Part shown: one piece after another, positions 23,104 through 38,780 of the stretch
How positions within the stretch are numbered: position 1 is the stretch's first letter
Layout of the letters: the number at the start of each line of letters is the position of its first letter
Source of the DNA: Acidobacteriota bacterium
Lineage (GTDB): Bacteria > Acidobacteriota > UBA6911
Reading direction: 5' to 3'
Length of the DNA stretch: 64,000 bases
Assembly: GCA_963664705.1 (NCBI GenBank)
Contig: OY761556.1
Location: 4,896,001-4,960,000 of the forward strand
Made by a program: the position numbers and the translations under genes
The notes under the pieces: model-generated
Told to the model about the DNA's origin: nothing
The model's database searches: none
Seen by the model: the letters and a program-made list of their open reading frames with translations, nothing else

Positions 23104-23344
23104 GCACTTCAGAAGATAGCCTGAATTTTCGAATGGCAACGCTTCCGTTGCAAAAATGCCCCCGCTTGTCGGGTGTCCCGCCGCGGTCTTAATCCACACG
23201 AAAGGCTGGCTTTACACTCCTTGTCGTATAACTGTCGCATTCCTGACATTCCCGTTCTCAGGGGCTGCGGATACCCTTCAGCTCAACGCGGTGGCGTTCC
23301 TGCCACACGCAATGGACGACCGCATGGTCCGAAGGGAGGATGTT

Positions 23345-24400
23345 TTGAAGAAACAGGATATCTTGCGCGCCTGGGGGCGCATTCTTGTTGGGAAAGCACC
23401 ATCCATGTCGATTGAGATAACGCGACGATGTCCCCTGTCGTGTCCCGGCTGCTATGCTTATCAGAACTCCCACCTCGCCAGGGAGGGTTCCCTGACCAAT
23501 GCCCGGGAATTTGAGGGAGAACAGCTTATCCGGGGAGTTCTCTCTCTGGTTGACCGGCATCGGCCGCTGCACCTGTCCATCGTAGGAGGCGAGCCGCTGG
23601 TCCGTCAGCGGGAGATAACAGCGCTCCTGCCGGAGTTGGAAAGAAGGAAGATCCATACGCAGATTGTGACAAGCGCGGTCAGTCCTATTCCGATCGAATG
23701 GAGCCATTTCCGCCACCTCACCCTGGTCGTCTCCGTTGACGGCCTGCCTTCAGAACATGACCGGCGCCGGGCCCCTGCAACCTACAACCGGATCCTAAAC
23801 CACATGCGCGGACACTTGATTACGGTCCATTGCACGATTACGCGACAGATGACTCAACGGCCGGGTTATCTTCGGGAATTTCTCGATTTCTGGTCGGAAA
23901 GGGATGAAGTTCGCAAGATCTGGATGAGCTTATATACTCCCCAAATCGGCGAATCGCGTCCGGAGCTAATTCCTCAGGATCTGCGAAAAAGAGTGATCGA
24001 CGAACTTACTATACTCAATGACGAATTCGCAAAACTTGAACTCCCGCCGGGCTTGCTGCAGGCTTACAGGACGCCACCAGCCGGGCCACGTCATTGCGTA
24101 TTCGCTCTGACCACGCAAACAATTTCGTCCGACCTTACGACCAGGGTAATCCCTTGTCAGCTTGGAGGAAGGCCCGACTGCCATCAGTGCGGTTGCATTG
24201 CGGCGGCTGGCATGCTAGCGATCAGTCGGCACCGCCTACCGGGTGGGATCCAGGCCGGCACCATTTTCACTTTATCCCATGCTTTCGGGCTTCAACTGAG
24301 AAAATGGCTCGACAATACCGCTCTATCGCGGCCGATCATGGAAGGCAATCCAATTCCGCGTATTGGTCAGAACGCGGAAATCCGAATCGATGGCGCCTGA
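23345..24400 (+). CDS. Radical SAM protein with Cys-rich C-terminal auxiliary domain
   Basis: CPLSCPGC, 'GGEPL', 'VSVDG', C-terminal 'CVFA...CQLGGRPDCHQCGC'; TTG start after GGAGG. Confidence 0.85.
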   Translation: MKKQDILRAWGRILVGKAPSMSIEITRRCPLSCPGCYAYQNSHLAREGSLTNAREFEGEQLIRGVLSLVDRHRPLHLSIVGGEPLVRQREITALLPELERRKIHTQIVTSAVSPIPIEWSHFRHLTLVVSVDGLPSEHDRRRAPATYNRILNHMRGHLITVHCTITRQMTQRPGYLREFLDFWSERDEVRKIWMSLYTPQIGESRPELIPQDLRKRVIDELTILNDEFAKLELPPGLLQAYRTPPAGPRHCVFALTTQTISSDLTTRVIPCQLGGRPDCHQCGCIAAAGMLAISRHRLPGGIQAGTIFTLSHAFGLQLRKWLDNTALSRPIMEGNPIPRIGQNAEIRIDGA

Positions 24401-25709: not shown

Positions 25710-26852
25710 CTATTGAAGAATTTTATTTACCGCGTCGACCGCCAGATCCACTTCTTCCTTCGTTGCCTCCAATCCCAAGGCTAAACGAACAGTACCGTCA
25801 GGAAATGTCCCGATCGTACGATGAGCCGCCGGCGCACAGTGTAAGCCAACACGGCTCAGGATTCCAAATTCATCGTCCAGACGCAATCCAATTTCGGAGA
25901 CGCGATGCCGGGCTGCAGTGAAGGAAACAATCGATGTACGCCGAGTCACATCCGCAGGGCCGTAGATGTCGACTCCATCCATATTCGCCAACCCTTCAAT
26001 GAGCCGCCGGGTCAACTCAATTTCCCTTGCGCGAATCGCCTCAATTCCTCTTTCCATTATGTACTGAAGGCCGGCGCCAAGTCCGGCAATTCCCGGGCCG
26101 TTCAAAGTACCGCTTTCAAATTTATCCGGCAAATCTTCAGGCTGTATCTCGAATTCAGAACGGCTCCCGGTGCCTCCGCGCCAGAGGGGCTTCATCTCTT
26201 CAGGATGCGCTGCGCTTCCGATTATCAATCCGCCGGTTCCCTGCGGCCCCTGCAATCCCTTATGCCCGGTGAAGGCCAAGAGATCGATGCCCATGGCGCC
26301 CATATCGATGGGCACAACACCCGCCGTTTGCGCCGCATCGACCAGCAACAATGCGCCTGCTTGATGGACTATCCTCGCAATCTCATGAATCGGAAGAATG
26401 GTGCCAACGACATTGCTGGCATGAGTAACCACCACCATTCGGGTAGAGGGACGCAATGCACTGGCAAAAGACTCCGGAGCCACAGAGCCATCCCGCGCAC
26501 AGGATATCACCGTTAGTTCGATCCCTTTTTTTTCGAGATCCCGCAGCGGCCTCATGACGGCATTGTGTTCCATCGAGCTTGTGATGACATGATCTCCCGG
26601 TCCTAAAATCCCGTAGAGACACAGATTGATTGCCTGGGTAGCGTTGGCTGTGAAGATTACTTTCAGGGGATCCGGGGCATTGAAGAAATTCGCCAGAGTT
26701 TCGCGCACGTTGTAGACGATGCGTCCGGCCTCGATGGACAAACGGTGCCCGGCACGACCCGGATTGCCGCCCCTCACCAGGAAATCTGCCATCGCATGGA
26801 GAACAGCGGGCGGTTTCGGCCAGGAGGTTGCGGCATGATCGAGATATATCAT
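25710..26852 (-). CDS. Cysteine desulfurase / selenocysteine lyase family PLP enzyme (class V)
   Basis: 'IYLDHAATSWPKP', 'EHNAV', 'VDAAQTAG', 'FTGHKGL', 'RVGLHCAP'. Confidence 0.92.
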   Translation of the reverse strand: MIYLDHAATSWPKPPAVLHAMADFLVRGGNPGRAGHRLSIEAGRIVYNVRETLANFFNAPDPLKVIFTANATQAINLCLYGILGPGDHVITSSMEHNAVMRPLRDLEKKGIELTVISCARDGSVAPESFASALRPSTRMVVVTHASNVVGTILPIHEIARIVHQAGALLLVDAAQTAGVVPIDMGAMGIDLLAFTGHKGLQGPQGTGGLIIGSAAHPEEMKPLWRGGTGSRSEFEIQPEDLPDKFESGTLNGPGIAGLGAGLQYIMERGIEAIRAREIELTRRLIEGLANMDGVDIYGPADVTRRTSIVSFTAARHRVSEIGLRLDDEFGILSRVGLHCAPAAHRTIGTFPDGTVRLALGLEATKEEVDLAVDAVNKILQ

Positions 26853-26858
26853 GGGCCT

Positions 26859-27581
26859 TTATTCCAGACAATTTTGCGACATCAAGGTCGCTTCATAGAA
26901 GTTCACACCCAGATAGCACCAAGTGCCATTTCGTCGGTACTGCGCCAGACCGCGTTGGGTGCGGCCGTCAAGGTAAGAGAACAGGCCCTCGGAAAAAGCA
27001 TCATACTCGGCGGGCTGGAAAGGCCGTTCGACCCTGGCCCTGCGTCGGAGAGTAAATCCTTTCCTTTCGAACAGCGGCATGACTCTCAACGGAAAGGCCC
27101 AATCGGTAATCAGCATATATAGCCGTCCGCCGGGCATGAGATAGCGTTCGGCTTTCGCGGCCAGTCTGCGCAGGTATTTGAGCCCATCAGGTCCCCCATA
27201 CCTGGCTGCGAGAATCGGTTTCGGAGCAGGAAGCTGCGGAAGGGTTGTGATGATAATGTCAAACCGTTCCCCTCGGACCGGAGCAAAGAGGGATCCGACG
27301 CGTCCATCAACCCGCGTGATGCCATTCCGGGCGGCATTCCGGAGTGCGCAGGTTACGGCGGCGGGATCAATATCGGTAAGGACGATTTCTCCCGCTCCGC
27401 GCACCGCAGTGGAAAGACCATAGCCTCCCGCCCCGCAGCCGAGGTCAAGAACTCTGTCGCCGCGCCGAACGCGTATCGCCGCCGCAACCGTATCCGCATA
27501 CGGATCCGGATGATGCACCGGCGAGTCCACCGATAGGGAAATTGGGCTGTGGGGAGGAACCTGCAACTTAAATTTTTTCAT
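26859..27581 (-). CDS. Class I SAM-dependent methyltransferase (HemK/MTS-like)
   Basis: 'VLDLGCGAG', 'TDIDP', 'GSLFAPV...FDIIITTLPQLP'. Confidence 0.85.
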   Translation of the reverse strand: MKKFKLQVPPHSPISLSVDSPVHHPDPYADTVAAAIRVRRGDRVLDLGCGAGGYGLSTAVRGAGEIVLTDIDPAAVTCALRNAARNGITRVDGRVGSLFAPVRGERFDIIITTLPQLPAPKPILAARYGGPDGLKYLRRLAAKAERYLMPGGRLYMLITDWAFPLRVMPLFERKGFTLRRRARVERPFQPAEYDAFSEGLFSYLDGRTQRGLAQYRRNGTWCYLGVNFYEATLMSQNCLE

Positions 27582-27628
27582 AAAAAAATCTCTTTGATAA
27601 AAAAACACTCAATCGAATTACATAATGG

Positions 27629-28735
27629 CTAGGCTGTCGTTTTTTCTCTCATCAGCAAACCAAGAGTGACGCAAACAAGGATGCCGACGATCACCGCAAC
27701 CGGACCATAGGGACTGGGACCGGCCGGAGAGCTTGCCAGATTGAAATTGTGGGCAAATCCTGCGCCGACAAGCATGCCTATGACAAAGACGGCGGCATCG
27801 CCATCCCCTTCGCCGGACAAAAAGACCTGGCGGCCGGGACATCCTCCCGCCAGAGTAAATGCCAGGCCGGACAAAAGCATTCCGGCAAAATTCCACAATC
27901 CAAAGGTGTGCGCTATCGGCTGCTCCGCAAAACCGGGCTTAAATTGCCCCAACGCCAGGTTGGTTACAAATGAGGCCAGAACCAAAGCGATCACTCCGCT
28001 GAACAGATTCACATTTTTCAGGAGGATCAGATCCCGCACGGCTCCGACCGTACAGAATCGGCTGCGCTGCGCCAGAAACCCGATCAGCAAACCGGCAGCC
28101 AGGGAAATCCATATTCCCGCATGTTGGCTGCCGGGACCTTTCGCCGACAGAAATATCGGACCGATGGGTTTACCTTCCGGATCCCGCCCCAGTTGCGGCG
28201 CAAGGATCAATAAAAGCAGCAGGCCGATCATCAGAGCAGGCATTACCCATCCGAGCACATTAGAAGCCGGATGCGATCGCCCCAAGCTAAAGCCCATACG
28301 CAACAGGACTACGCCCACTGCAACCCCCGCTGCCAAACCGAGAATTCCCAGAAGTGCATTCCAGTCGCCGCCGCCCAGACGCAGAAAAGCGCGCCAGGGA
28401 CAACCCAGAAACACGAGAGCTCCGATCATGGAAAGAGCGCCCAGAAGAAATTTGATGAGCGGAGAAGATCCGGTGCGTGGACGGAATTCACGAAAGATCA
28501 ATGCCGCAACAAGAGATCCCAATATAAAACCGATGATCTCGGGCCGTATATATTGAACGGTGGCCGCGCGGTGAAAACCCAGGGCTCCCGCAATATCCCG
28601 GCTGAAACAGGCAACACAAACACCCATATTGGCAGGATTGCCCAGCTTGACCAAAATGGGAGCCAGCACACCCACCGCTAGCCCCGTGACAATTATTCCC
28701 CCGCGGGAAGACAGGAAACGGCCAATTGCGGACAT
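27629..28735 (-). CDS. yedE: YedE family putative selenium/sulfur transporter
   Basis: 'GNPANMGVCVACFSRDIAGALG', 'FLGCPWR', 'QRSRFCTVG', 'LAGGCPGRQ'. Confidence 0.9.
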   Translation of the reverse strand: MSAIGRFLSSRGGIIVTGLAVGVLAPILVKLGNPANMGVCVACFSRDIAGALGFHRAATVQYIRPEIIGFILGSLVAALIFREFRPRTGSSPLIKFLLGALSMIGALVFLGCPWRAFLRLGGGDWNALLGILGLAAGVAVGVVLLRMGFSLGRSHPASNVLGWVMPALMIGLLLLLILAPQLGRDPEGKPIGPIFLSAKGPGSQHAGIWISLAAGLLIGFLAQRSRFCTVGAVRDLILLKNVNLFSGVIALVLASFVTNLALGQFKPGFAEQPIAHTFGLWNFAGMLLSGLAFTLAGGCPGRQVFLSGEGDGDAAVFVIGMLVGAGFAHNFNLASSPAGPSPYGPVAVIVGILVCVTLGLLMREKTTA

Positions 28736-28821: not shown

Positions 28822-29667
28822 CTATGAAATAGCATCTTGAGTAATTGGCAAATACCCGACCGCATCGGACCGGCATCGCGTGCAATGATGCATCTGCCGG
28901 ACATAGGGACTCGCCCGCTGTCTCAACCATCTCATCTTTTCCTCACTGGGAGCCGCTATGCCCGCCATTTCTGTTCCAGCCAGAGGGATCAACGGCAGAA
29001 AATTCATCAAGTCCACCTGGAGGTTGCCCAGGTTCTTGGCAAGAAACGGCAAATGGTGTTCATTGATTCCAGGAACAACAACAGTGTTGATCTTGACGAT
29101 GATTCCGGCAGCTTTCAAACGACCGATGGCTTCGAGCTGCGTAGATATCAGGCCATGAGCCGCTTCCATACCTCTGAAGATTCTTCCGGCAATCGAAATC
29201 CACGGATGCAGCCGCGCCCCGATGAAGGGATCGATTGCATTGACCGTGATCGTTACATAGCCGACGTTCAAGGCGGACAAGTGCGGGATAGAGCCCATCA
29301 CATTCAATCCATTGGTGGAGACGCACAAAGCAATGTCCGGATTTTTCCTGCGAATAAGCTCAAAGGTCTTCAAGGTGCATTCCGGATCACAGAAGGCATC
29401 TCCCGGTCCCGCCACCGCCGCTACCGAGATGTGCGGCGTTTCTCGGAGTACCTGTTCCAGCCGCTCGGATGCTTCTTCCGGGCTCAACACGCCGGTGCAG
29501 ACACCGGGTCGGTTTTCATTGGGACAATCATGATCGCGGCGGCAATACGCACATTGGATATTGCAGGACGCAGCTACAGGCAGATGCACCCGCCCATATT
29601 TCCCTTTGGCCCCGGCATAAAAGCAGGGATGAATTTTCTGTTGCGTAGGCACGATGGCAGATGACAT
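28822..29667 (-). CDS. nifB: Stand-alone NifB-like radical SAM protein (no NifX domain)
   Basis: HPC, CNIQCAYC, ENRP, AGPG, TITVN and CTRCRSDAVG motifs; 281 aa. Confidence 0.8.
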   Translation of the reverse strand: MSSAIVPTQQKIHPCFYAGAKGKYGRVHLPVAASCNIQCAYCRRDHDCPNENRPGVCTGVLSPEEASERLEQVLRETPHISVAAVAGPGDAFCDPECTLKTFELIRRKNPDIALCVSTNGLNVMGSIPHLSALNVGYVTITVNAIDPFIGARLHPWISIAGRIFRGMEAAHGLISTQLEAIGRLKAAGIIVKINTVVVPGINEHHLPFLAKNLGNLQVDLMNFLPLIPLAGTEMAGIAAPSEEKMRWLRQRASPYVRQMHHCTRCRSDAVGYLPITQDAIS

Positions 29668-30471
29668 TTACGCTTTCCTCCCAGGGCGCCCGATGTGAAT
29701 GGCGTCACGAGGGCAAAGGGATGTGCAGTCGCAGCAGTTTGTGCAGTTGACCTCTGCAGGGCGAGTTCCCATTTCACAAACTTGAAGGCATTGATTGCAG
29801 CCGTCGCATTTGTCGTCTTTGTAAACCTTAAACAGGGAAAGCGATTTGATAATTTCCAATGCGCCGCCCGTGGGACAGGCAAACCGGCACCAGGCGTTGG
29901 CAAGGAGCAGTCCCAGCAGGACGAATCCCAAAACAAAAACGGACCGGATCAGCCAGAGCGGATGCGCGTTCTTGAACGTAAACGCGAACGAAGCGAAGAA
30001 CTCTCCGATTCGAATCGGCACAGCTTCACGCGGTTGTCCATAAGGCAGCCAAATGCAGAGCGCCACCAGCAGCCCGATATACTTAAAATAGGGTGCGGTC
30101 TTCGTAAAACCGTTTCTGATTCGCAGCTTTGCCGACGATGCCATTCCAAGCAGTTGATGGAGTAATCCTCCGGGACAGAACCAACTGCAAAAAGCCCTGC
30201 CAAAAACCAGCGCGGAGATAGGTAGCAGGAGCCAAAAGCCCCAGAACATCGTGAGAAGCCTGCCATGACAGGTAATGACCGGGCAGTTCTGGCAGCTTAC
30301 GTACGGCACTATGAAAGGGCAGCGAAAAATGCCGTAAAAGGACCACTGCCCAAGAACAGCCAGCGAAGCGCACTGAGCAACCCGACGCCACCGGGTAACC
30401 GGCGCTGTTTTGCTTTCCTCCCCTGACAATTCGTTCATCACTGCAAGCTGAGCCACGTTGACCTTAGACAT
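29668..30471 (-). CDS. Membrane polyferredoxin (NapH/YccM-like 4Fe-4S binding protein)
   Basis: 'GRAFCSWFCPGG', 'WCRFACPTG', CDGCNQCLQVC, CTNCCDCTSLCP; TM segments. Confidence 0.88.
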   Translation of the reverse strand: MSKVNVAQLAVMNELSGEESKTAPVTRWRRVAQCASLAVLGQWSFYGIFRCPFIVPYVSCQNCPVITCHGRLLTMFWGFWLLLPISALVFGRAFCSWFCPGGLLHQLLGMASSAKLRIRNGFTKTAPYFKYIGLLVALCIWLPYGQPREAVPIRIGEFFASFAFTFKNAHPLWLIRSVFVLGFVLLGLLLANAWCRFACPTGGALEIIKSLSLFKVYKDDKCDGCNQCLQVCEMGTRPAEVNCTNCCDCTSLCPRDAIHIGRPGRKA

Positions 30472-31333
30472 CTTTCACCCCCAGTTTCTCAACCAAACGA
30501 CGCCCTTCATCCGACATGGCGGGGATAAAGCCTGCGGACTGAAAGAATCCCTGTCCTTCCTCCGACAAAATGAAATCCACAAAATGATTGGCCAGTGCCT
30601 TGTCGCGTGCGTTTTTCATCACGCCAATGGTGAAGGTCAGCGGACCGGCAGGGAAAAATTCCTCAGGGATTGGAAGAACCTCTACTTTTCCGCTGAAGAG
30701 AGGCATCCGCGTCAACCTGCATTCAACCACGGACACATCCCCTTTTCCCTTTACCAGATCCTCCATCGTGCGCTGGACGCAGCTGCCTTTGATTACAGCA
30801 TTTTTCATGGCCTGATCCAGAACTCCAGCCTTTTTCAGCAGCCCGGTGACCGCTTCTCCGCCCGGCGCTGAGGCATCGGGAGCAAGAATTACCCTGACCC
30901 CCTGCTTTGCCAGGTCCTGTATAGCTGAAATGCCCGCGGGGTTGCCTTTCGGCGTGACCAACACATAGGAAGTAAAGCAGAGCGGCTTAAAGAACGACAT
31001 TTTGTTCGCGCTGCGCAGCTTCTGGGCCAACGCGAGAACTCTTCCCGCAAATACCTCAGTGGTTGCGCTGCCCAAAAGCGATTTGCCTAAGGCGGCGGCA
31101 AAAGCACCGGTAAAAGCGATCTCAATTCCGGTCTTTGTCCGGTATTGCTTGTTTGCAGGAATAAAGGCTTCCGCCAGTCCACCACAAGCCCAGACCTGAA
31201 GCGTATTCTGCCCAAACGATAGTGATTCCGAACCGGCTGCGGCAACCGTTGCGCCTGCTGCGGCCCCGGTGGCGACAGTCAAAAAGGCCCTGCGGTTCAA
31301 GAGGGATTGCGGTACTGTTTCAGTCATATGCAT
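30464..31333 (-). CDS. ModA-like (molybdate/oxyanion) substrate-binding protein with Tat signal
   Basis: 'NRRAFL' Tat motif; 'LVTPKGNPAGI...DLA', 'APGG', 'FVDFILSEEGQ...GF'; four Cys. Confidence 0.8.
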   Translation of the reverse strand: MHMTETVPQSLLNRRAFLTVATGAAAGATVAAAGSESLSFGQNTLQVWACGGLAEAFIPANKQYRTKTGIEIAFTGAFAAALGKSLLGSATTEVFAGRVLALAQKLRSANKMSFFKPLCFTSYVLVTPKGNPAGISAIQDLAKQGVRVILAPDASAPGGEAVTGLLKKAGVLDQAMKNAVIKGSCVQRTMEDLVKGKGDVSVVECRLTRMPLFSGKVEVLPIPEEFFPAGPLTFTIGVMKNARDKALANHFVDFILSEEGQGFFQSAGFIPAMSDEGRRLVEKLGVKDV

Positions 31334-31701: not shown

Positions 31702-32592
31702 ATGGAACTGAGATATATCGAGATATTCTGCGCAGTGGTAGAACTGAAGAGCTTTTCCAAGGCCGCCCAGGCGTTGCATCTGACTCAACCGACGATCAGC
31801 GTGCATATCAAAGCCCTGGAAGACGAGTTTTCGACCAAGCTTCTGGACCGTCTTGGCAGAACGATCCTGCCGACCCAGGATGGCGAAATTCTTTACAGGT
31901 ATGCAAAAGAGATCGTCACTCTGAAAGAGAATGCGCGCAAGGCGATGGAAAGGGTCACCGGCACGGTGAGCGGCAAGCTTACTATCGGCGCAAGCACGAT
32001 ACCGGGAGAGTACTTGCTCCCGCGCCTGCTCGCTGGATTCAGAAAGGCTTATCCCGATGTATTTCCCACACTCCGGATCGCCGATTCGAATGACATTTAT
32101 GAAAGTGTGCTCCGCGGCGAAGTGGATCTGGGCGTCATCGGGAAAGAGGTGAAAGACAAAAACATCATCCTGCAAAAGTATCTGGGCGACGAGATCATTC
32201 TTGTCGCACCGGCAACATACAAGCCTTCCAAATTGCATCGAGACGAAGTCAAAACAGTCCCGCTGATCGTCCGGGAGAGTGGCTCCGGCTCTCGGTCTTC
32301 GCTGGAAGCCCATCTGCAAAGGATCGGACTGTTGTTGGACAGCCTCAATATTGTCGCGGAAATCGGTTCCACGCAATCGCTGATCCAGGCGGTGAAATTT
32401 GGCATGGGATTGGCCTTTACTTCCAGTCTTTCGGTCAAAGATGAGATTGAGCGAGGAACGTTGAAGGCCGTTCAAATAAAAGGAATGGCGATTTTCAGAA
32501 ATTTCTATGTCATTACTCACCGGCTGCGCTTCAACTCGCTGATTTGCAGATCCTTCATCGATTTCCTCACGCAGTCCGGCGGGAAAAAATAA
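31702..32592 (+). CDS. CysL-like / selenium-metabolism-associated LysR regulator
   Basis: 'SFSKAAQALHLTQPTIS', 'GASTIPGEYLLP', 'RESGSGSR'; divergent from the YedE cluster. Confidence 0.85.
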   Translation: MELRYIEIFCAVVELKSFSKAAQALHLTQPTISVHIKALEDEFSTKLLDRLGRTILPTQDGEILYRYAKEIVTLKENARKAMERVTGTVSGKLTIGASTIPGEYLLPRLLAGFRKAYPDVFPTLRIADSNDIYESVLRGEVDLGVIGKEVKDKNIILQKYLGDEIILVAPATYKPSKLHRDEVKTVPLIVRESGSGSRSSLEAHLQRIGLLLDSLNIVAEIGSTQSLIQAVKFGMGLAFTSSLSVKDEIERGTLKAVQIKGMAIFRNFYVITHRLRFNSLICRSFIDFLTQSGGKK

Positions 32593-32694: not shown

Positions 32695-34182
32695 ATGCGA
32701 CAGTGGCGGTATTTTTTTTCAGGCGGGGTTTTTTTGTTATCGGTTTTGAGCGCGGCATTGATCCCCGGTAGTGTGCGGGCGGAAACCAAGCTATTTGCGC
32801 TAGACAAAAACACCAGTGTTTCGGCCTCCGGTGAAATTACGGCACGAAACACCTATGAAAACTGGTTTGAACCAGCGTCGACGAATTACAAAAACAGTTA
32901 CGATTATTTTTTTACGCGCACACGCCTGGCCATTGCCCTTCGCAATCCATACATCCATGCTTATGTGCAGGCCCAGGACGTTCACATGTGGAATCTTCCT
33001 GAAAGCTCTATTGCTCCGGCGCCTCAGGGAGCCCTGGGTAGCGGGGCAACCTATTACTCCCATGCCAAGAGCGATTTCGATCACAGCCTGATAATCCGGC
33101 AAGCCTACCTGGATTTCCCCAAGCTCTTTTTGAAGGGGCTTTCCACAAGGATTGGTCGCTTCGATTATGCGGATGGCCAGGAGGTCACCTATAAGGATAA
33201 TCCCAAGGTGACGTGGCTCAAGAACACGCGCTTGTCTGACCGGATGCTCGGCGCCTTTGACTGGTCTTCTTACAATCGCAGTTTCGACGGGCTTCAGGCC
33301 AAATATGACAGGAAGAATTTCAATCTGTACGTTTCCGTCACCCACCCGACGCAGGGAGGCTATGAGAACAATGCTCAGAAGACGATCTCTTCCATAAACC
33401 TGGGCAACATTACCGGCACGATCAAATATGGCGGATGGCTGAAAAACACTGAAGCGCGCATTTTCTATTATTATTACTTCGATCACAGAAACATTCCGAC
33501 CACACTCGGACAAAGCGGTCTGAAGGATGGACCGATTCGAATCAACACCTTCGGCACCCACTGGCTGCACACTGAAAGCACCAAATCCGGCGTATTCGAT
33601 ATGCTCTTCTGGGGCGCGCTCCAGGATGGGAAATGGGGCGCCGTGGATCACAAAGCATGGGCTGCGGCGATAGAAGGAGGGTTTCAGTTCACAAAGATTC
33701 GCTGGAAGCCCTGGATTCGAGGCGGCTATTTCGCCTCATCCGGCGATTCGGATGCCACGGACGGGAAGCATGAAACCTTTTATCAGATGCTTCCAACGGC
33801 TCGCAAGTATGCGCTTTTTCCATTTTACAATTTGATGAACAATGAAGACCTGTTCATTCAGACCATTTTGAAACCCAAAGAAGCTTTCTCCATTCGAGCG
33901 GATCTTCACAGCCTTAGCCTTCAGAACTCCCATGACCTCTGGTACATGGGGGCGGGCCCGACACAGAGTTCGGGTACCATATTTGGGTATACGGGGCGTC
34001 CCAGCAACAATCAGAGCGGGTTGGCAACAGTCCTGGACATTTCTCCCAGCTATACATTCTCCAAGTACCTGTCGGCAAACCTCTATTATGGTCACGTTTT
34101 TGGACGGGATGTCCTGAAGAGCATCTATCCCAAAAATTCAAATGGCGATCTGTTTTATATAGAGATGAAGACACAATTCTAG
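32695..34182 (+). CDS. Alginate-export family outer-membrane porin
   Basis: Signal peptide; 'IRQAYLD', 'RSFDG', 'SSGDSDATDGKHETFYQMLPT', terminal F. Confidence 0.8.
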   Translation: MRQWRYFFSGGVFLLSVLSAALIPGSVRAETKLFALDKNTSVSASGEITARNTYENWFEPASTNYKNSYDYFFTRTRLAIALRNPYIHAYVQAQDVHMWNLPESSIAPAPQGALGSGATYYSHAKSDFDHSLIIRQAYLDFPKLFLKGLSTRIGRFDYADGQEVTYKDNPKVTWLKNTRLSDRMLGAFDWSSYNRSFDGLQAKYDRKNFNLYVSVTHPTQGGYENNAQKTISSINLGNITGTIKYGGWLKNTEARIFYYYYFDHRNIPTTLGQSGLKDGPIRINTFGTHWLHTESTKSGVFDMLFWGALQDGKWGAVDHKAWAAAIEGGFQFTKIRWKPWIRGGYFASSGDSDATDGKHETFYQMLPTARKYALFPFYNLMNNEDLFIQTILKPKEAFSIRADLHSLSLQNSHDLWYMGAGPTQSSGTIFGYTGRPSNNQSGLATVLDISPSYTFSKYLSANLYYGHVFGRDVLKSIYPKNSNGDLFYIEMKTQF

Positions 34183-37006: not shown

Positions 37007-37372
37007 TCAATAGGCAACGGACGGAGAGCCATTCGCCAGCCACTCTACCAGTGCTGCTCCTCCAGCCGGAGTAGCCCCCTTGATGAGCTGGTCTTCGCCG
37101 ACATTGCGTTTCTTCATGCAGGGAGTACAAACCAGGATCTTCCCCCCTCCCGCAACAAATTTATCCATGAGCTCTTTGAGCGGAGCGAATGGCGGACCCT
37201 CCTTGATTTTTTCCGCCTCTCCTTGTACCGCGCACCAAATGCCGTCACTGCTCAGGAATACCATCGTCTCCTTTTCACTGCCGAGTGCTGCATTGGCGAC
37301 CACGAAACCCAAAGTAGCCTTATCCCCATCCGTACGACAGTGAGTAATGGTTACACAGAATGTACCGGCCAT
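37007..37372 (-). CDS. DsrE/DsrF-like family protein
   Basis: 'FLSSDGI', 'GGKILVCTPCMKKR', 'PAGGAALVEW'; AAGGAG RBS. Confidence 0.85.
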   Translation of the reverse strand: MAGTFCVTITHCRTDGDKATLGFVVANAALGSEKETMVFLSSDGIWCAVQGEAEKIKEGPPFAPLKELMDKFVAGGGKILVCTPCMKKRNVGEDQLIKGATPAGGAALVEWLANGSPSVAY

Positions 37373-37437
37373 CAGTCTTGCTCCTTTCTTCTCGGAATAT
37401 TGTCCATAGTACAGTATTGAACCCCGGTTCAAAAATT

Positions 37438-38457
37438 CTAGTGCACTTCAATTTTTTTAATGCGCTTCACAGAACGTCCGCCGGTGCTGTCTTCCCCTGT
37501 CACCGACATTGCGAATCCATCGGCAGGCGACAGCGGTTTGCCGTCCTTCACTGTGGCAATGACAATCTGGTCGCCCATGCGCGAATTAAAAAGTTCGCCA
37601 AAGGAGTAGGTTGCGCAATAACCATCGTCGCTGGTTATAAGAACATAGCGGTTGTAGGGCGCGGGATCCGATATGGAGATGTATTTCTTCAGGAAAACAG
37701 ATAGCGGAACGCCATCCAGGTCATGGATCCCGTGGAAGCCCTCGCATTCGCCAATCATGACGGCTGCGGGAATGTGGATTTTGGGCAGAGCTTTGAGGTC
37801 CGCAGGATTCACAATGCGCTGAATTTTGCCGATCTGGTCGGTGAGGGAGAATTCGGTGCTGGGAGGACGAACCTTTTTCTTCTCCTGATCATCGTAGGCC
37901 AGGAGCTCAACATCCACACGAGAAACCTTTATCTCTGTCAAATTCGTCATTGTGCGGCCGTCATGAATATCCGTGGCAACAACCAGGGTTGGCGAACAAG
38001 GCAGCTCCTCGCGTTCATACGCTATCAGGACACTGCGCCCAATGCTGGAATAAAAGATCTCTCCAAACGAAAACACGATTTCCCGGTTGTCTCTATTCCG
38101 GATTTGAATGAACGTGCCCGGCTCCCATTTTCGCTTATGCTTCATCCCGGCTTTCCATAGAATGTCCCGCAGGAGGACGCCGCGAAAGGTGGTTTGTGTC
38201 ACCTTTTCCTTATCCTGCCGGTCACGCACCCGCTCCGGAATCACCGGGACATCGCGGATGAGAAATGGCGGCATCGCTTTGAGATCAGCAAGGGATACGG
38301 ACAATTCCTTTTGCAGCTCGCCTCGAACCGCAATTGAAGCCTCCTGGGAAAGGGCTCGCCTGGCCAGGAAGGGAGTGAGCAAAGAACAACACAGGCAGGA
38401 AACCATCCAACAGGCTTTCCCAGCCTTTGCAAAACGCATATTGAACAAGGAGAACAT
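37438..38457 (-). CDS. Exported protein with two tandem Oxidored_molyb-like (molybdopterin-binding) domains
   Basis: Internal duplication: 'FRGVLLRDIL...IVFSFGEIFYS...DIHDGR' and 'LDGVPLSVFL...ATYSFGELFNS...DSTGGRSVK'. Confidence 0.65.
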   Translation of the reverse strand: MFSLFNMRFAKAGKACWMVSCLCCSLLTPFLARRALSQEASIAVRGELQKELSVSLADLKAMPPFLIRDVPVIPERVRDRQDKEKVTQTTFRGVLLRDILWKAGMKHKRKWEPGTFIQIRNRDNREIVFSFGEIFYSSIGRSVLIAYEREELPCSPTLVVATDIHDGRTMTNLTEIKVSRVDVELLAYDDQEKKKVRPPSTEFSLTDQIGKIQRIVNPADLKALPKIHIPAAVMIGECEGFHGIHDLDGVPLSVFLKKYISISDPAPYNRYVLITSDDGYCATYSFGELFNSRMGDQIVIATVKDGKPLSPADGFAMSVTGEDSTGGRSVKRIKKIEVH

Positions 38458-38780
38458 CGGAAGCTCCCTTTGAGAATGCGGCAATCGCCTCGTTGCCGGC
38501 TCCTCGCGGGAGGTCTAGCAGGATGGTGGATTCCTCTGCAGAGTATTTCCCGGACGGATACGCAATGATGCGATCTGTTTGGTCATCAGCACTTGCACGC
38601 CGTGCAACCAATGCCGGGTTCAGGTTTTTCGTACGTAAATCACCATTTTTTCCTCGGGGGCGGAGTTTAACACAAGGTATTCGATCGCGCAATTTTTGCA
38701 TTCCTGCCCGATGAAGGAGCGCAATACCGGTGCGAACTGCAAAAATATTGAGATATAGGCACTAAAGGGTAAAAAGCCGT

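Follow-up and report, generated by a model that had tools for sequence, protein, structure and literature searches.

A Second, Single-Domain NifB in an Acidobacteriota Genome Belongs to a Conserved Unit With a ModA-Fold Protein and a NapH-Like Membrane Protein

Introduction

NifB is the radical SAM maturase of FeMo-cofactor and builds the iron-sulfur cluster with a central carbon that nitrogenase uses. NifB proteins can be recognized by a fingerprint of six motifs (Arragain et al., 2017; PMC5715403), and according to the available text of the same source, the single-domain form of the protein occurs in archaea and makes up 24% of bacterial NifB. Some NifB proteins and homologs serve systems other than nitrogenase. 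In methanogens, NifB functions outside nitrogenase and provides L-like clusters to McrC/Mmp7 (bioRxiv 10.1101/2023.10.20.563283; PMC12176620), and McrC is described in the accessible part of PMC12176620 as binding the L-like cluster through two cysteines. The MarB, IsrB, and Nfa-type homologs serve nitrogenase-like proteins, as far as the available text of PMC13474568 goes.

Here, we analyze a single-domain nifB gene in a window of 64,000 nucleotides (the whole stretch of DNA under analysis) from an Acidobacteriota bacterium of the UBA6911 lineage (assembly GCA_963664705.1, contig OY761556.1, positions 4,896,001 to 4,960,000). A previous sequence-only reading of the window had regarded this gene as an orphan NifB with a non-nitrogenase client. 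While this type of enzyme is known, we found no account of its surrounding system in the searchable literature: searches for NifB in non-diazotroph, Veillonella, NapH/ModA/twin-arginine, YedE/selenium, and Campylobacter concisus contexts, covering titles and the openings of abstracts, mostly of papers outside subscription, returned no description of the unit reported below.

An Intact Second NifB in a Genome With nif Genes

The gene (28822..29667, minus strand) encodes a NifB paralog of 281 aa, as assigned by profile matches, motifs, and ligand positions. All six motifs claimed for it in the sequence-only reading were found, on the minus strand from 29667 to 28822: HPC (29623-29631), CNIQCAYC (29542-29565), ENRP (29506-29517), AGPG (29401-29412), TITVN (29239-29253), and CTRCRSDAVG (28855-28884). 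This set of motifs is not a matter of chance, because the protein matches both TIGR01290 (E 1e-84, profile positions 8-276 of 441) and the solved NifB 6Y1X (E 6e-69), and it aligns to 6Y1X and 7BI7 without large gaps. Its score of 284.7 bits is below the curated TIGR01290 cut-off of 343.65 bits, which is expected for a protein that lacks the NifX part of the 441-position model and is aligned over positions 8-276 only. The absence of a NifX domain had also been read correctly: the ORF stops 10 residues past the last motif, and Pfam gives Radical_SAM only. An in-frame TGA in the ortholog of another genome (G016) was considered as a selenocysteine codon and rejected, as it is an ordinary stop right after the last motif.

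The residues that hold the clusters are in place. The RS ligands are C35/C39/C42, the K-cluster (K1, K2) ligands are C15, H28, C115, C262, and C265, and further NifB site residues are also present, namely loop residues C48/E51, T141, K192, and N194 (roles as given in the accessible text of PMC8179604). In the main type of NifB encoded in the three-gene unit described below (hereafter the cassette), C15, H28, C35, C39, C42, C48, E51, C115, T141, C262, and C265 are kept in 35/35 proteins and all six motifs in 34/35, and K192 and N194 are invariant across 103 close relatives. A missing His at HPC+6/+7 was rejected as a sign of lost function, since several nif-linked NifB-X proteins also lack it and since it is not a ligand according to the available part of PMC8179604. 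We infer from the conserved ligands that the window NifB would perform carbide-inserting chemistry, and, judged by its sequence, the gene is an intact second NifB copy of this genome.

The surroundings of the gene agree with the earlier description in one respect: the window contains no nif gene, as tblastn with NifH, NifD, NifK, NifE, NifN, and NifV of the host and with its NifX domain gave no match there at E<1e-4. The term “orphan” was mistaken, since the genome holds nifHDKENB and the gene itself belongs to a conserved three-gene unit. The genome has six PF00148 matches and two strong PF00142 matches, and a nif cluster at C1:4,623,185-4,634,713, about 290 kb from the window gene, includes nifA-like, nifH, D, K, E, N, and nifV-like genes (with A and V assigned by reading the translations) and a gene for a NifB-X of 427 aa that is 45% identical to the window NifB. 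On paper, therefore, the host fixes nitrogen. The window gene is neither linked to nifHDKEN nor the sole NifB of a diazotroph, as a nif-dedicated NifB would be, and adjacent H, D, and K nitrogenase-like genes of the kind that mark MarB, IsrB, and NfaB are missing. In GC content, the cassette is like the rest of the genome (0.529 versus 0.532 for the genome).

Two other observations concern the same genome. A second nitrogenase-like pair, consisting of a 735-aa NifH-like + NifE/D-like fusion and a 436-aa partner, is encoded outside the window at C1:6,416,471-6,419,972, within a cobalamin-type gene cluster and with no adjoining nifB; it is under all NCBIfam cut-offs and resembles tetrapyrrole-associated nitrogenase-like groups. 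Within the window, another radical SAM gene (23156-24400, plus strand) has no NCBIfam family over cut-off.

A Conserved Three-Gene Unit

The nifB gene is the third of three genes on one strand. It is preceded by a gene for a ModA-fold protein of 289 aa (30464..31333, minus strand), a candidate client that has a twin-arginine signal and in which three cysteines are invariant, and by a gene for a NapH-like membrane Fe-S protein of 267 aa (29668..30471, minus strand; PF12801, with TIGR02163 below cut-off). The ModA-fold gene and the NapH-like gene share 8 nt, and the stop codon of the latter abuts the nifB start codon. A promoter/terminator scan gave no excess over shuffles.

Copies of the unit occur in Acidobacteriota, Desulfobacterota, and Negativicutes, with a patchy distribution. 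In the genus of the window, the NapH-like gene is present in 6/30 genomes, with both partners alongside in all six, and the ModA-fold gene was found in 0/300 of the other Acidobacteriota sampled. Among Desulfobacterota, 15/401 genomes have the NapH-like gene, accompanied by the ModA-fold gene in 15/15 and by an adjacent NifB in 12/15 (nifB downstream in nine, a divergent nifB upstream in three, none in three). The ModA-fold gene is present in 32/301 Negativicutes and in 1/401 of the Bacillota sampled; in 11 larger Negativicutes genomes that have it, the NapH-like gene is always adjacent, and nifB is intact in eight, a stub in one, and missing from two. Within a Veillonella-like genus, an identical set of 32/55 genomes carries both nifB and the gene for the ModA-fold protein, and the cultured Veillonella parvula DSM 2008 has an identical ModA-fold protein, matching that genus. 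A plasmid collection contained no match to the ModA-fold protein. Contigs from four RNA runs of one study span parts of all three genes of one Veillonella-like locus; DNA carry-over is possible, so these are not counted as expression. A protein collection places the NifB-like protein of Veillonella (276 aa) and the NapH-like protein (268 aa) in a single 90% cluster; either a clustering artifact or a member fused by read-through could explain this.

A divergent subtype was identified at three loci (L153-L155, in genomes G150, G251, and G339), with the gene order nifB - ModA-fold - NapH-like. Its NifBs lack ExRP and TxTxN and keep HPC and the RS cysteines, so that 0/3 have all six motifs; the full canonical motif set is thus not always needed.

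The Cassette in Genomes Without Nitrogenase

The non-nitrogenase client proposed in the sequence-only reading gains its support from relatives, in which the cassette is present in many PF00148-free genomes, and not from the host genome itself. PF00148 was found in 0/55 genomes of the Veillonella-like genus and is also absent from G004 (86% complete), G008 (76%), G009 (100%), G016 (98%), G048 (95%), G342, and G251, while two more (G416 and G390) contain sub-cut-off scraps only. A search for NifH at E<=1e-15 gave no match in 5/5 genomes tested, four of them cassette-bearing. The split is not a clean one, as PF00148 genes over cut-off occur in 11 of the 15 Desulfobacterota with the NapH-like gene and in 4/5 Negativicutes tested. 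A separate nif-linked NifB is present in 6/6 Desulfobacterota in which the complete trio and a nif cluster occur together.

The pattern of loss points in the same direction. In six genomes (G337, G186, G412, G1325, G1284, and G1305), the two partner genes are retained while the cassette nifB is missing or no longer intact, and 6/6 encode another full NifB. Counted over the genomes tested, which are related and partly fragmented and do not include six other Negativicutes whose cassette is intact, the cassette NifB is lost in 6/14 genomes with another full NifB versus 0/12 without one (Fisher p=0.013; p=0.08 once kin are collapsed). Loss only where another NifB exists fits partners that need a product any NifB supplies, which suggests, without proving, that this is what the partners require. 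We consider a non-nitrogenase role for the cassette NifB well supported, because of the presence of the unit in 32/55 genomes of a genus without nitrogenase-family genes together with the loss pattern. Decay of the gene can be seen directly in G1305, where the cassette nifB is a stub; the stubs in G1305 and G1294 are about 65-90 codons long, and a nifB fragment in G1294 is beside a nifH fragment.

In a quick, unrooted IQ-TREE phylogeny of 61 rows, which was built without MarB, IsrB, and the solved methanogen proteins, with one long-branch row (L037) omitted and three rows kept from the mostly near-identical Veillonella-like proteins, the window NifB is placed within a clade of 29 rows, all of them cassette proteins (SH-aLRT 99). 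This clade, a second cassette clade of six rows with the Veillonella-like proteins, and eight nif-linked NifB-X rows form a group of 43 rows (SH-aLRT 99); the NifB-X rows are of Desulfobacterota and Acidobacteriota type and include that of the host. Monophyly of all 35 rows from cassettes cannot be rejected, as the best tree of this kind scores 4.1 log units higher (p-AU 0.654), and the three divergent cassette NifBs fall elsewhere. The window NifB is apart from the five archaeal rows, none of which is from Methanosarcina or Methanobacterium. The sequence-only reading had held that a position among diazotroph NifBs, with nifHDK in the genome, would speak against a separate client. The nifHDK genes are indeed there, and the position is of both kinds, as the protein groups with nif-linked NifB-X (SH-aLRT 99) yet is within an all-cassette clade (SH-aLRT 99).

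The ModA-Fold and NapH-Like Proteins as Candidate Clients

The ModA-fold protein carries a twin-arginine motif, RRAFL, at residues 14-18 (31280..31294, minus strand, from sequence), and a TatC gene is present in the host genome. The motif was found in 64/66 locus-derived rows, with one truncated and one junk row as the two misses and three more loci dropped by the search pattern. Tat signals are also found on cofactor-free binding proteins. Three cysteines, C50 (31184-31186), C119 (30977-30979), and C185 (30779-30781), whose codons span 30779..31186 of the minus strand, are each present in 176/177 aligned rows, and the sole miss is a junk row of two residues.

The predicted structure (pLDDT 93) has ModA structures as its best matches (4KD5: Z 26.4, rmsd 2.1 over 224 residues). 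In E. coli ModA, the anion ligands are S12, S39, A125, V152, and Y170 according to the accessible text of PMC8895017, and in a MAFFT alignment with bridging sequences these positions are occupied by G52, A79, G158, V186, and E204 in the ModA-fold protein. The cysteines C50, C119, and C185 align to A10, L81, and D151 of E. coli ModA. C50 adjoins the S12 position on one lobe and C185 the V152 position on the other, next to the two residues that form an engineered disulfide in 3AXF (A11C/R153C). L81, to which C119 aligns, is part of a hinge strand and is not among the ligands of ModA. None of 45 loci (0/45) has a match to E. coli ModB at E<1e-6 beside the unit, and generic ATPase matches occur in 7/45. 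Because the anion ligands S12, S39, and Y170 are replaced, C50 and C185 are on opposite lobes, and ModB is missing, the sequence and the model suggest that the protein is more likely an exported cofactor-bearing protein than an ABC binding subunit. The cysteines could equally bind a single metal, an arsenic or selenium species, or a [4Fe-4S] cluster, or form a disulfide.

Distant relatives of the ModA-fold protein were found in Methanococci and Armatimonadota (P0310, P0436, P0289, and P0286), with the CGG cysteine and the equivalent of C185 kept; the Methanococci relatives thus have two of the three cysteines, and they have a non-Tat leader. As these two-cysteine relatives occur outside the cassette, the cysteines do not depend on it. 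A selenium-induced protein of M. maripaludis, MMJJ_00160, was considered as a homolog and dropped, as the part of the PMC11097638 supplement that was available assigns it to an ordinary modABC operon; the Methanocaldococcus relative, used as a query, returned two proteins only, neither of them named M. maripaludis. One 562-aa protein (P0276), a single sequence on one 21 kb contig, is a fusion of a divergent NifB-like domain and a ModA-fold protein in which the twin-arginine motif is retained internally. A prediction of the complex of NifB and the ModA-fold protein scored 0.01 and counts neither for nor against such a pairing.

The reading that we prefer, while giving it a little less than an even chance, is that NifB builds an L-type carbide cluster, likely for the ModA-fold protein, which would be exported by the Tat system and form a redox module with the NapH-like protein outside the cytoplasm. 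The product of NifB would be, with good probability, an [8Fe-8/9S-C] cluster. As client, a role for which it is a plausible candidate though still on the doubtful side of even, the ModA-fold protein would hold the cluster between cysteines of its two lobes and be loaded before export; McrC, with an L-like cluster on two cysteines, is a precedent for such a two-cysteine clamp. The NapH-like protein would pass electrons between the membrane pool and the cluster site.

It is also possible, if unlikely, that the L-type cluster goes to the NapH-like protein and that the ModA-fold protein only binds substrate via its cysteines and docks. The NapH-like protein has two CxxxCP motifs, a C-terminal cysteine set of the 2x[4Fe-4S] type, and four further cysteines, C51, C60, C63, and C68, and all 16 cysteines are invariant in 78/78 rows. 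These four extra positions, the direct contact of its gene with nifB, and the CxxxCP motifs, which are expected to face the cytoplasm, would all suit a recipient of the cluster. The cysteine patterns, however, resemble ordinary [4Fe-4S] sites of the NapH family, and the sole fusion found joins NifB to the ModA-fold protein instead.

A different objection concerns the chemistry itself: the NifB paralog might carry out other radical SAM or methyl-transfer reactions, such as modification of a partner or methylation of selenium, and release no carbide cluster. The absence of ExRP and TxTxN from the divergent subtype is in favor of this, as is an A-N pair after AGPG that is found in 18/18 and 17/18 nif-linked rows and is variable in cassette rows, and IsrB, a NifB homolog of unclear product in the available text of PMC13474568, provides a precedent. 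We nevertheless consider it quite unlikely, as the main type keeps all K-cluster ligands and SAM-site residues, and the loss of the cassette copy only beside a canonical NifB suggests that the two are interchangeable.

Selenium Genes Around the Unit

In the window, the unit is flanked on one side by genes for a putative selenium transporter of the YedE family (27629..28735, minus strand; TIGR04112 at 493.6 bits, cut-off 200), a HemK/PrmC-like SAM methyltransferase (26859..27608, minus strand), found there only with the closest relative, and a cysteine desulfurase or selenocysteine-lyase-like PLP enzyme (25710..26852, minus strand). The PLP enzyme is over the TIGR01977 cut-off and, with 416.5 bits, below the SclA cut-off of 525 (NF040779); it and YedE are accessory neighbors. 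On the other side are a divergently transcribed selenium-metabolism-associated LysR regulator (31702..32592, plus strand; NF040786 at 312.9 bits, cut-off 250) and an outer-membrane porin-like protein of the alginate-export family (32695..34182, plus strand; PF13372), a gene of which type is near the cassette in 5/27 loci.

Selenium genes are within the fetched flank in 10/27 loci, not all of them independent, and YedE flanks the unit in 6/11 Negativicutes loci. In one genus, TIGR04112 is over cut-off in 1/1 cassette-bearing and 0/3 cassette-free genomes. As a discriminating marker, selD was rejected, being nearly universal in the Veillonella-like genus (54/55 genomes, with or without the cassette). 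The host genome has two selD genes (C1:3,076,698 and 2,046,792), one of them with an in-frame TGA that is likely selenocysteine. A double-cubane-cluster reductase gene is near the cassette in 7/27 loci and often adjoins it (L066, L078, L080, L084, L170, L178, L180, L227, and L228); that of L066 is over the NF040772 cut-off, and the host genome has no close copy. A DsrE-family gene and a gene with a molybdopterin-oxidoreductase domain (37007-38484, minus strand) are near the cassette in the window and are not so paired elsewhere.

A role in selenium metabolism is our best guess for the unit, at less than an even chance. In the preferred reading, the job of the exported module would be the capture or reduction of selenium or sulfur species for uptake via YedE, for which we see nearly an even chance. 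More broadly, and with greater reserve, we suggest that anaerobes, including common oral and gut Veillonella, may carry a NifB-loaded carbide cluster in a Tat-exported solute-binding fold that is wired to a NapH-like protein, involves no nitrogenase-family protein, and probably acts on selenium or sulfur species.

Alternatively, NifB may itself be the terminal catalyst, with captured and imported selenite or sulfite reduced on the nascent cluster in a “ninth ligand” step, NapH-like electrons driving the reaction, and selenide passed to SelD. Selenite can replace sulfite as the source of the ninth ligand. This possibility, very unlikely in our view, draws on the YedE, YedF, SclA-like, and selD genes that often flank the unit and on the in vitro formation of the ninth sulfur from sulfite and a reductant (accessible text of PMC8179604). 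Each turnover, however, would consume two SAM and eight Fe unless the cluster were recycled, 17/27 loci have no nearby selenium gene, and genomes with selD and without the cassette are common.

That the gene is a spare NifB for the host nitrogenase or the second nitrogenase-like pair is highly improbable: the genome does encode nifHDKEN and a NifH-fusion pair whose locus has no adjacent single-domain nifB, the cassette clade is related to nif-linked NifB-X, and many cassette Desulfobacterota and Negativicutes also have nif genes, but the nif cluster has its own NifB-X and dozens of PF00148-free genomes retain orthologs with the gene order unchanged, which contradicts such a role as the reason for retention of the gene and leaves incidental cross-feeding in this genome as a possibility.

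Significance and Comparison With Known Systems

These results identify a bacterial NifB with all ligands kept in genomes without nitrogenase-family genes, with two candidate clients named. The question of other users of the L-cluster can be tested directly in the cultured V. parvula DSM 2008, and small mesophilic single-domain NifBs become available for cofactor engineering. Many close relatives are labeled “nitrogen fixation protein NifB,” and a nifB annotation in a metagenome is not evidence for nitrogen fixation.

With the NifB maturase (TIGR01290; PDB 6Y1X, 7BI7, 7JMA/B), the window protein shares the six motifs and the RS and K-cluster ligands. It differs from nif NifB in that the cassette NifB is located outside the nif cluster, forms its own clade, is kept without nitrogenase-family genes, and is tied to ModA-fold and NapH-like genes. 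MCR is not expected in these bacteria. The cassette NifB resembles the methanogen NifB of the McrC/Mmp7 system in being single-domain with a non-nitrogenase role, and the methanogen client likewise holds its cluster by two Cys/His residues on a non-nitrogenase fold; by contrast, the host here is bacterial, and the candidate client has an exported binding-protein fold. Like MarB, IsrB, and NfaB, it is a NifB homolog devoted to a system with a role other than nitrogen fixation, although those proteins are encoded with H/D/K-type genes, whereas the cassette NifB has none adjacent and often none in the genome.

The partners show the same mixture of likeness and difference. The ModA-fold protein has the fold of ModA and keeps P-G at P124/A125 and V152, but S12, S39, and Y170 are replaced, and it has three invariant cysteines, a twin-arginine signal, and no ModB match at any of the 45 loci. 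The NapH-like protein shares the CxxxCP and ferredoxin motifs of the NapH/NosR-type membrane polyferredoxins, but it is under the family cut-offs and has four extra invariant cysteines. As in the putative selenium cluster of YedE, YedF, and SclA, genes for YedE and an SclA-like enzyme adjoin the unit in the window, together with that for a selenium LysR regulator, but the trio also occurs at loci without selenium genes.
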